64,000 nt of DNA, from assembly GCA_965262715.1 (NCBI GenBank), contig OZ253553.1:1888001-1952000 (forward strand), written 5' to 3'. The stretch comes from Bdellovibrionales bacterium (lineage in GTDB: Bacteria; Bdellovibrionota; Bdellovibrionia; Bdellovibrionales; JAUICD01). This document shows, piece by piece, positions 39,947 to 42,332 of this stretch. Made by a program: the position numbers and the translations under genes. The notes beneath the pieces were generated by a model, which ran no database searches, had not been told where the DNA came from, and saw only the letters and a program-made list of their open reading frames with translations. How positions within the stretch are numbered: the stretch's first letter is position 1; every line of letters begins with the position of its first letter.

Positions 39947-40382
39947 AAAGATAAATAGAGCTTTTGAAAATATTACATACTCCACTGTAAAAACCCTATA
40001 AGTGGTCTAACAATCAAATACTTCTATTTACCTAGGATCTAGGCATTCCGGCAATCTGTATCAGGCATTATCATTAGCGTTCAACCTTTGTATTTGAAAG
40101 CACTTTATACTGAATGCCAAATAATATAAGAATTGTAAAAGCCAATGATAAGAATGAGAAGGTATCTAAAGATTTTGATACGAGCACTTTGGACTTATAT
40201 TTGAAATAACAAATATCTGCTATATTCTCTCTGAGATTTAAGACCTAGAGTTATGGCAGGTTTCTGGAATAGGCCTAGGCCAGTGCCTTAGGAGACAAGG
40301 CTTGTATAAAATATTTTATCCTATAATAGCTTCTTAAAATAACAAAAATACAAGGCACGGGGGATGCCTGTTGCCTATGGAA

Positions 40383-42254
40383 GTCGAGTAGAATAGAGGA
40401 ATTTCACCCCTAAGCTCTCACAGAACCGTGCGTGACAGTCTCCCGTCACACGGCTCTTATCATTCCAAACCTTGTTATGGCAGTACCAGCTTCCAGTGTG
40501 TAAATAAATCTTGGTTTGCTCTCGCAAATCCTTTTAGCCATCTGTTGGACCTTCTAAAACTTCTTCTCATACTCTTTAAGGTCCTTCTTACCCACTTTAC
40601 CAGTACCCTGTTTATCCTTCGCAAAATTATAGAAAACGCTGAAGGATAATAGCTACAATAGTAATTCATCCAACCCCTTATTATCGGATTGTATTCCTTA
40701 GCTAATTCTTGTAGGCTCTTATCACTCCGCTTATCAAGTTTCCACTTCCTTACTCTTCTACTTATTGATCGCTTTGAACGACTACTTACCGCTGGAAGAA
40801 AACCTGTGAATATTTTACCTGTTTTCCCCTTGGCTCCTCGAGGACGATACGTGTATCCAAGAAAATCAAAACTGATCTCCACTTGTATCTTCCTCCCTTT
40901 GTAGTGCCCTCCGCAATAAACAAGCTTGGTCTTCTCTGGATGAAGGCTCAATCCTATTCTCTCTAACCCCCGTCCTATCGACTCCATCACTTCTTCTGCT
41001 TCTGATCTCGTCTTGCAGTGGATTATGCCATCGTCCGCATATCTAACTATACGTACCTCCAGATAATGTTCTGACATCCAACGATCAAATGCATAGTGTA
41101 AGAATAGATTTGACAATAAAGGACTGATCACTCCGCCTTGTGGCACACCTTTTGTTCTGGCTTGCTCAACTCCATCCTCGTTCATCGGCGCTTTTAACCA
41201 TCTCTCAATGTATAATAAAACCCACCACTCACTTATATGGTGTCGTACTGCCTTCTTCAGCAGTGTATGGTCTATATTGTCAAACATACCTTTGATATCA
41301 AACTTTATCACCCAATCGTATTTCCAATTCCTCTTTCTTACCACTCCTAGCACTTCTTTTGCTGATTTGCCAGGACGATAACCATAAGAATCCTTGTGAA
41401 ATATCTTGTCTAGTCTGACTTCAATCTGACGCTTCACCACCATCTGTGCTATCCGATCCTCTACCGTTGGAATTCCTAACTTACGCTTTCCTCCTTCTGC
41501 TTTTGGTATGCTTACAACTTTCACTGCCGGTGGATAGTATGAACCAGATGATAAACGATTCCAAAGCTTATATAGATTCTTCCCTATTTCTCGCTCAAAA
41601 TCCTTTATACTCTGACCATCTACTCCACTTGAGCCTTTGCTCGCTCGCACTGCTTTGTAAGCTTGCCATACCTTCCCTTTCGAAATATCCTCAAAAGGTT
41701 TAGCTTGTTCTGTTGCTTTTGCCTTCTTACTTGTTCTAGTTGTGGCAATCACTACAGATGAATGATGTGATCCCTTCGCACGAATTGCTATTACACCTCT
41801 CGTATCGCTACTACGAATCACTCCGCCCCTTAAATTGACTTTGGTACTCTCGCTCTTATGAGGTATTCTCATTTGTAACTTCTCCCTTTACATTCAATTT
41901 AAGGTTCTCAAGTTCCTTGCATTGGCCTGGACAGAATTCATGCCACCTTAGTGCCAGATGCCGCTTAACCGGTAAACAGGTAACCGTTAAGCTCTTCATG
42001 GATTTCAGTTCCTAATCCACTTTTGGCTATCTTCTCTATGGTTTTGACAGGTCTACAGTGGTTCATTTACATTCATCTCTTCTATCCTTACTTGACGATT
42101 TCTTTATCGCCTTTTCCTCGTTGGCTTCCCGTTGAACTCCTTAGAATTCATCCGTTACGAGGTGGTTTCAAACCCGCTCCTGTAAGCCGATCTCGAGGGG
42201 ACTACCCTCATCCTTTGCAAAGCATGGAAACTGTTTGTTTCCTTCTTGACGCCC
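40383..42254 (-). mobile_element. Group II intron (RmInt1/EcI5-like, bacterial class D), 1872 nt
   Basis: 5' GGGCGTCAAG (variant of GUGCG); 34-nt domain V GAGCCGTGTGACGGGAGACTGTCACGCACGGTTC at 40456-40423; domain VI; 3' end ...CTCGAC. Boundaries are confirmed by MITE reconstitution. Confidence 0.9.
40475..41872 (-). CDS. ltrA: Group II intron reverse transcriptase/maturase, no HNH endonuclease
   Basis: KPF..I.K..VWQAYKAV..KGSSGVDG, LYKLWNRLSSGSY, LGIPTVEDRIAQ, GVPQGGVISP, RYADD, domain X NPIIRGWMNYY. The ORF N-terminal ~50 aa probably lie in intron RNA structure; true start is unclear. Confidence 0.93.
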   Translation of the reverse strand: MRIPHKSESTKVNLRGGVIRSSDTRGVIAIRAKGSHHSSVVIATTRTSKKAKATEQAKPFEDISKGKVWQAYKAVRASKGSSGVDGQSIKDFEREIGKNLYKLWNRLSSGSYYPPAVKVVSIPKAEGGKRKLGIPTVEDRIAQMVVKRQIEVRLDKIFHKDSYGYRPGKSAKEVLGVVRKRNWKYDWVIKFDIKGMFDNIDHTLLKKAVRHHISEWWVLLYIERWLKAPMNEDGVEQARTKGVPQGGVISPLLSNLFLHYAFDRWMSEHYLEVRIVRYADDGIIHCKTRSEAEEVMESIGRGLERIGLSLHPEKTKLVYCGGHYKGRKIQVEISFDFLGYTYRPRGAKGKTGKIFTGFLPAVSSRSKRSISRRVRKWKLDKRSDKSLQELAKEYNPIIRGWMNYYCSYYPSAFSIILRRINRVLVKWVRRTLKSMRRSFRRSNRWLKGFARANQDLFTHWKLVLP

Positions 42255-42332
42255 GAAGCCTGCTATAACTCTAGGTCTTCTTAATATTGTGAAATATAAA
42301 ACTTATTTTGTCAGACTGTTTCAATTAACTTA

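Follow-up and report, generated by a model that had tools for sequence, protein, structure and literature searches.

A class-D-like group II intron in the terminal inverted repeat of a miniature transposable element of a Bdellovibrionales bacterium: probable homing route and a variable target-reading loop

Group II introns that home into insertion sequences (IS) are common (PMC3522654). Described examples are RmInt1 in ISRm2011-2, Sr.md.I1 in the transposase open reading frame (ORF) of IS66, and the E. coli introns E.c.I1, E.c.I3, E.c.I4 and E.c.I9, which insert into specific IS elements (PMC4615759, PMC3522654). RmInt2, a class D intron of Sinorhizobium meliloti GR4, has all its copies in the inverted repeats of ISRm17, an arrangement that, according to its authors, provides twice as many targets and ensures that one of them is on the lagging strand, and class D introns are biased to the lagging-strand template (PMC4615759). 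In this work, we analyzed a 64,000-nt stretch of the genome of a Bdellovibrionales bacterium (assembly GCA_965262715.1, contig OZ253553.1, positions 1,888,001 to 1,952,000, hereafter the window), in which a group II intron interrupts the right terminal inverted repeat (TIR) of a miniature inverted-repeat transposable element (MITE). Positions are those of the window unless given as genome positions, and a slash marks the insertion point. The reading that we prefer, and consider likely, is that this full-length intron, which encodes a class-D-like reverse transcriptase (RT) devoid of endonuclease and is inserted after nucleotide 17 of a 152-bp MITE, belongs to a family that retrohomes into the TIR on the lagging-strand template by pairing of exon-binding sites (EBS) with intron-binding sites (IBS). 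In the limited set of literature searched, including the available part of PMC4853749, we found no published group II intron located in a MITE TIR.

The host element is a short, non-coding and multi-copy sequence of 152 bp, running from GAGTTATGG to CCATAACTC, with an 18-nt TIR, GAGTTATGGCAGGYTTCT. In empty copies of this element, GAGTTATGGCAGGCTTC is directly followed by TTCCATAGGC, TTCCATAGG or TTCCATAGGCAACAGG, indicating that the intron spans exactly 42254..40383 on the minus strand (1,872 nt, 5' GGGCG ... CUCGAC 3') and follows MITE nucleotide 17, at the inner edge of the right TIR. A 1-nt ambiguity of the boundary was settled by the conserved intron ends of homologs. A first-pass annotation of the window had placed the intron at this inner edge, and the empty copies bear this out. 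The same annotation described a 25-nt TIR, the outer 8 nt of which (AAGACCTA) turned out to be flank, the conserved family end beginning at GAGTTATGG. The outer 17 nt of the right TIR form the 5' exon (42255..42271, minus strand), with IBS2 TATAG at 42267-42263, the linker CA and IBS1 GGCTTC at 42260-42255. The other 135 nt of the MITE lie at 40248..40382 (plus strand), with the left TIR GAGTTATGGCAGGTTTCT at 40248-40265 and IBS3, a T on the minus strand, at 40382. BLAST matches to the rest of the genome delimit the repeat around the intron to the last ~137 nt (from 40383 leftwards) and 17-25 nt before the intron.

We scored at least 40 copies of the MITE, with 76-93% identity, and found 36 inverted TIR pairs spaced by 120-179 bp, 24 of them by 150-159 bp. 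TA borders many copies, the intron-bearing one included, though not all, and the outer flanks consist of a small set of recurring shell modules. The right-end target reads TATGGCAGGCTTC/T; the TIR consensus at IBS2 is TATGG, and IBS1 takes the form GGCTTC at 31 ends and GGTTTC at 8. A genome search for long elements bounded by these TIRs, which could have pointed to an autonomous partner, gave the intron-bearing copy only, and the MITE was absent from the same-genus genome.

The intron itself carries the expected ribozyme parts. The 5' part of domain I (IA, IB and IC stems; 42090..42209, minus strand) matches Rfam RF01999 with 63.3 bits (E 2.2e-10, gathering score 36), and domains V and VI (40383..40458, minus strand) match RF00029 with 62.5 bits (gathering score 40); an AGC triad, a GAGA tetraloop and a branch A located 7 nt from the 3' end were read directly from the letters. 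A tblastn search of the intron protein against the whole 2.94-Mb genome gave one full-length RT match and four same-family fragments, and the window intron is the sole intact copy in the genome. In all, the family amounts to seven copies or fragments, the window copy included. No DNA of the intron domain I was found in any of 40 related genomes.

The intron-encoded protein (465 aa; 40475..41872, minus strand), delineated by ORF and profile searches, contains RT and maturase (X) domains with a YADD box and ends in LKGFARANQDLFTHW. It is recognized by RVT_1 (2.4e-40), GIIM (1.1e-13) and TIGR04416 (400.9 bits, for a cutoff of 300), and its nearest relatives of solved structure are group II RTs. 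Pfam gave RVT_1 and GIIM only, and a DNA-binding or endonuclease domain was not found in the 465 residues. The nearest sequence relatives are 79 loci from diverse phyla with 47-55% RT identity, the best plasmid match being a Neochlamydia sp. S13 plasmid (50.7%). Twenty of these loci were scanned with Rfam, and domain I of 17 of them was aligned with that of the window copy using MAFFT; L040 (N run over the 5' end), L027 (RF01999 match not beside the RT) and L079 (no RF01999 match) were left out. Class D intron proteins have the C-terminal motif LX3AX3PXLF[V/A]HW (PMC4615759). The C-terminus of the window protein resembles this motif, with Q for P and T for V/A; the motif is exact in two of the 17 homologs (L041, L054), and P.LFAHW is kept in several more. 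Classes B, C, E and F are disfavoured. Class B has a CGC triad in domain V (PMC4024640), where the window intron has AGC; classes E and F have a 5-nt domain V loop (PMC3753933), compared with 4 nt (GAGA) here; and the presence of EBS2 speaks against class C. We term the intron class-D-like. The 3' end, ...GAC, agrees with the AY boundary rule, and the 5' end departs from GUGYG: all four genome copies that keep this end begin with GGGCG (U2 to G), as compared with GUGCG or GUGUG in the 17 homologs.

Four copies retain a 5' junction (the window copy, A, C and D), and three of these (the window copy, A and D) are at the same TIR position. The 3' junction is clear in five (the window copy, A, B, C and E), two of which (the window copy and B) run into the MITE body at that same position. 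Between A and D, the intron is 98.2% identical over 111 nt and the flank 78% over 100 nt; between the window copy and B, the intron is 97.2% identical over 250 nt and the MITE part 76.3%. Divergence is far greater in the flanks than in the introns, indicating separate insertions into MITEs that had already diverged, and by this measure at least three independent TIR insertions are shown. Such repeated insertions speak for past mobility of the intron family only, its present splicing and mobility being putative.

These identities also bear on another explanation, according to which the MITE-borne copies spread as DNA, either by transposition of the intron-bearing MITE or its shell, the intron being cargo, or by recombination between repeats, and not by repeated retrohoming. 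Both outer MITE ends do persist around the intron, A and D have one shell module in common, and the non-MITE 3' flank of copy A suggests past recombination. Besides the divergence of the flanks (78% and 76.3%, against 98.2% and 97.2% for the introns), eight differences over 68 nt separate A from D in shell and TIR, compared with two over 111 nt of intron (counted by eye), there is a single full-length copy, and no other long element lies between these TIRs. We judge spread as DNA to be very improbable. The cargo movement envisaged in the first-pass annotation is not supported: there is a single full-length copy, and the occupied MITEs come from diverged subfamilies.

The orientation of the copies fits retrohoming. 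According to the cumulative GC skew, which shows some local irregularity, the origin is near 2.6 Mb and the terminus is near 1.0 Mb. In all seven copies or fragments, the sense strand coincides with the strand that is locally rich in G (leading), an observational result; copy C lies in a region of locally inverted skew. Reverse splicing into the lagging-strand template, described for class D introns (PMC4615759), would be expected to give this orientation. The skew is irregular at ~1.6-1.8 Mb and 2.2-2.4 Mb, which suggests inversions in this repeat-rich genome.

The minimum free energy fold of the 5' 385 nt recovered the EBS1 hairpin and not a canonical domain I, and the comparative alignment was therefore used to assign the EBS. 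The EBS1 hairpin, GUGGAU-UAGGAACUGAA-AUCCAU (41998..42020, minus strand), is present as the first-pass annotation had proposed for the stem GUGGAU(U)/(A)AUCCAU, and compensatory changes occur at all six stem pairs of the alignment. In the aligned loop columns, EBS1 of the window copy reads GAACUG (42006..42011, minus strand). Compared with the homologs' own 5' exons (-6..-1), these columns pair at five positions or more in 15 of 17 cases and at all six in 10 of 17; the two misses are L072, with a loop insertion, and L014, in which the 5' splice site could not be placed with certainty. EBS2, CCAUA (42037..42041, minus strand), had been proposed with a 2-nt linker and aligns with the EBS2 of the homologs: its columns pair 5/5 with -13..-9 in 8 of 17, and it complements the TIR consensus TATGG. 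RNAalifold gave no conserved stem around it, so that this call follows from exon complementarity only. As candidate EBS3, we retained the A in CACU[A]AGG (41949, minus strand), the column that best covaries with the +1 position of the 3' exon (14 Watson-Crick and 2 G-U pairs of 18); +1 is a T at all five clear 3' junctions in the genome. The alignment thus shows a target made of IBS2 (-13..-9), a 2-nt linker, IBS1 (-6..-1) and IBS3 (+1), and EBS2 (CCAUA) and the candidate EBS3 (A) are shown by complementarity to agree with the TIR consensus TATGG../T.

The EBS1 of the window copy behaves differently from its EBS2 and EBS3. GAACUG forms only three Watson-Crick pairs and one G-U pair of six with its own 5' exon GGCTTC, and the same numbers with the left TIR GGTTTC. 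It was initially read as GGAACU (42012-42007), one nucleotide further 5', and this register is at the core of an alternative in which the loop of the window copy is a functional EBS1 tuned to the MITE TIRs, chiefly to the left GGTTTC. The window copy does sit in a TIR, and GGAACU would pair 6/6 with the left TIR (four Watson-Crick and two G-U) and 5/6 with the occupied right one. In IIB introns, the delta nucleotide normally stands just 5' of EBS1, which counts against this register, as does the homologous register, in which at least five of six positions pair in 15 of 17 homologs and in which the window copy fits the 5' exon of copy C 6/6. Moreover, GGTTTC is the minority form (8 ends versus 31), and left-type ends were never seen occupied. 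We estimated the chance of a 6-nt pairing, with G-U allowed and in any of ~4 loop registers, at ~0.01; a pairing that also tolerates one mismatch, like that of the occupied site, is within chance. We thus regard a functional GGAACU as improbable, and the proposed fully paired left TIR as not confirmed.

A better match to the TIR is found in a sister copy. Copy A (genome 1881205-1880078, minus strand, 6.8 kb left of the window) is internally deleted and dead, and retains domain I. Its EBS1 loop is AAGAAGCCGA in place of UAGGAACUGAA; when the register is counted from the 3' side of the loop, as for the homologs whose loops have 10 nt (L073, L067), its EBS1 reads GAAGCC and forms 6/6 Watson-Crick pairs with the TIR GGCTTC, which is also its own 5' exon. 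The window copy and A differ at 5 of 11 loop positions versus 29 of 597 in the remaining aligned 5' region (Fisher p = 1.5e-4), by which the EBS1 loop is shown to be a hot spot of change between the aligned copies. The full target of the A-type set, TATGGNNGGCTTCT, occurs 17 times in the genome compared with 0.18 expected, and all 17 sites are at MITE ends (10 left-type and 7 right-type); one of them is an unoccupied end in the window (TATGGCAGGCTTCT, 13279-13292, plus strand). The full target predicted from the window copy, TATGGNNCAGTTCT, has no occurrence in the genome. Thus, through copy A, the EBS set of the family matches both terminal repeats, and the window copy's own EBS1 has no perfect site. 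The proposal that the EBS are tuned to the MITE TIR therefore stands for the family and not for the EBS1 of the window copy, and that of two targets per MITE stands at the level of sequence, although only right-type ends were seen occupied. Copy A has a 3' flank unrelated to the MITE (TAAATATAT..., genome 1880078 leftwards), though its 5' exon is a MITE TIR, and it carries two internal deletions.

Copy C (genome 1775299-1775578) is internally deleted and 98-100% identical to the window copy. It lies precisely where a repeat of another family, X, ends (...GAGACCAGTTC/TA, ...AAAATGCAAAAYTTATTTTTGAGAYNNNTTC/TA), and its 5' exon CAGTTC pairs 6/6 with GAACUG. Thus, an intron copy does occupy a repeat unrelated to the MITE, and homology places EBS1 elsewhere than first proposed, two results that the first-pass annotation had itself named as counting against its proposal. 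X ends read ...AAAATGCAAAAYTTATTTTKNNAGAYNNNTTC then TA, and one X end (42291-42322, plus strand) abuts the intron-bearing MITE. A 19-nt pattern taken from the terminus at copy C, with up to 3 substitutions, has 69 matches in the genome, ~40 of them with an X-type terminus by eye. The termini vary as NNNTTC/TA, and two empty ones read CAGTTC/TA (genome 1574375 and 1273362).

Copy C suggests a further explanation, namely that the association with the MITE is a by-product: the true home would be elsewhere, at X termini or at a lost site, and the TIRs would be abundant near-cognate sites for ectopic retrotransposition. Retrotransposition into imperfect IBS sites has been described (PMC3522654), copy C combines an exact X terminus with 6/6 EBS1 pairing, one X terminus, CGCTCC, fits the GGAGCG variant described below, and the EBS1 type of the window copy is also found in other samples. 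The second half of the target points the other way, since -13..-9 of the X termini is TTGAG or GTCAG, which fits neither CCAUA nor CCACA, and EBS2 suits the TATGG of the MITE. In addition, copy A pairs 6/6 with the TIR, three of four 5' junctions are in TIRs, and the full A-type target is found at MITE ends only (17 of 17). A true home outside the MITE is in our view unlikely, less so however than a functional GGAACU.

The variability of EBS1 extends beyond this genome. The same intron, with 90-99% identity, is on contigs of three other public samples (X5, X7 and X8), and the reconstructed EBS1 readings are GAACUG (X5, X7), GAAGCC (X7, X8 and copy A in X1), GAACCG (X7, X8) and GGAGCG (X5). The presence of the window-type EBS1 in other samples indicates that it is not a private mutation of the window copy. 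Of the 17 variable positions and 4 indels in the 171 nt compared, the 11-nt loop holds 5 and 3, respectively, and the C form of EBS2 at 42038 is on every covering contig except the window copy's own in X1. These variants evoke a bolder scenario: an intron lineage living on mini-transposon termini would be naturally reprogramming itself, its 10-11-nt EBS1 loop flipping among at least four readings that track the ...TTC/T ends of two MITE families, and the terminator-like hairpin of the MITE would put the intron within the 3' tail that is transcribed from genes upstream. We offer it tentatively and hold it to be less probable than not. If true, it would offer a natural parallel to targetron retargeting, observed in the course of a switch.

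Several observations weigh against retrohoming of the family into the TIR and have to be set beside the evidence above. In the sole intact copy, EBS1 is mismatched to the copy's own 5' exon, which makes efficient splicing and TIR homing of this copy doubtful as judged by pairing, and copy A, whose EBS1 suits the TIR, is internally deleted, with an EBS2 (CCACA) that pairs at 4/5 positions with TATGG. One of four 5' junctions (C) and three of five clear 3' junctions (A, C and E) are outside the MITE. B and D could be the two halves of one insertion, and for this reason we count at least three TIR insertions and not four. The 17 perfect A-type sites stay empty, six of them in the favoured orientation according to a crude replichore assignment. 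IBS2 is altered in all three occupied TIRs (TATAG in the window copy, T-TGG and TATGA in the TIRs of A and D, for a consensus of TATGG), an event with a chance of ~0.09 given that 17 of 31 CTTC-type ends are intact, hence not significant. The non-MITE 3' flank of copy A is unexplained, recombination between intron copies or a later deletion being possible. Finally, the loop variants of the other samples were reconstructed from contig difference tables over 171 nt and not read as sequences.

With these points included, retrohoming into the TIR could proceed as follows. The family would be, or would have been, adapted to the MITE TIR, and diversification of its EBS1 loop would shift its target specificity. 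Either the window copy entered the TIR despite an imperfect EBS1, the perfect pairing of EBS2 and EBS3 and the dozens of available targets making entry easier, or its loop was gained after insertion. A zinc-type alcohol dehydrogenase family gene (42333..43328, minus strand) lies upstream in the same orientation, with 61 nt between its stop codon and the MITE end and 78 nt between its stop codon and the intron. This layout makes it likely that transcription of the dehydrogenase gene reads through into the intron, ahead of a terminator-like hairpin in the right end of the MITE (AGGCAUCCCCCGUGCCU followed by a T-run; 40353..40369, minus strand, consensus scan only), which starts 13 nt downstream of the intron 3' end. 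Mobility would use nascent lagging strands as primers, like that of RmInt1 and RmInt2. The hairpin and T-run are retained in many other right-type MITE ends, and MITEs carrying them may serve as terminators behind genes. The MITE also adjoins a 1,621-aa ORF (34444-39309, minus strand) with weak matches to P-loop NTPases (AAA_16 and NPHP3_N, E ~1e-4), which might encode a STAND-like NTPase.

The locus would then be a case of layered selfish DNA, in which a retroelement lands in the terminal repeat of a non-autonomous transposon, a harmless site available in many copies. The naturally occurring variants of the EBS1 loop in a single intron family could show how specificity changes without loss of function, and the case could show whether splitting of the TIR silences the host MITE.

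Compared with its closest sequence relatives, the window intron has the same RF01999-type domain I, with a 5' stem-loop insert after GUGYG (GGGCG here), an EBS1 loop of 11 or 10 nt and EBS2 at the same position, and many of these relatives have the P.LFAHW tail. They differ by their GUGYG 5' end and by their targets, which for 7 of the 17 aligned homologs (L024, L025, L002, L005, L007, L073 and L041) is the R-Y-A-D-D coding sequence, that is the YADD-coding box, of the RT gene of another intron. The flanks of L024, L002 and L005 match further models of group II domain I (RF02005, RF02001), and the common EBS2 of the RT-gene-inserted homologs, GCGUA, reads the TAY-GC of the Tyr-Ala codons. Judging from these sequences, they look like a sub-lineage homing into other group II introns.

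Like RmInt1, Sr.md.I1 and the E. coli introns, the window intron uses mobile elements as safe homing sites, and its copies decay by fragmentation; those introns differ in having targets within autonomous IS, and RmInt1 in its 1-nt linker and high specificity. The principle is already published for RmInt2 in ISRm17 and for the IS-homing introns, and our result refines this picture and does not change it. The likeness to RmInt2 is the closest and includes an intron-encoded protein without endonuclease, a C-terminus that resembles the class D motif, a target within the TIRs of a transposable element with two opposite-strand sites per element, a 2-nt IBS1-IBS2 linker, an A/U-type EBS3-IBS3 pair, tolerance of EBS2 mismatches and lagging-strand bias (PMC4615759). 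In contrast to RmInt2, the target here is not an IS but a non-autonomous MITE of 152 bp, of which at least 40 diverged copies were scored, IBS1 has 6 nt instead of 7, the sole intact copy mismatches its own site, and the EBS1 loop is polymorphic among copies and strains.

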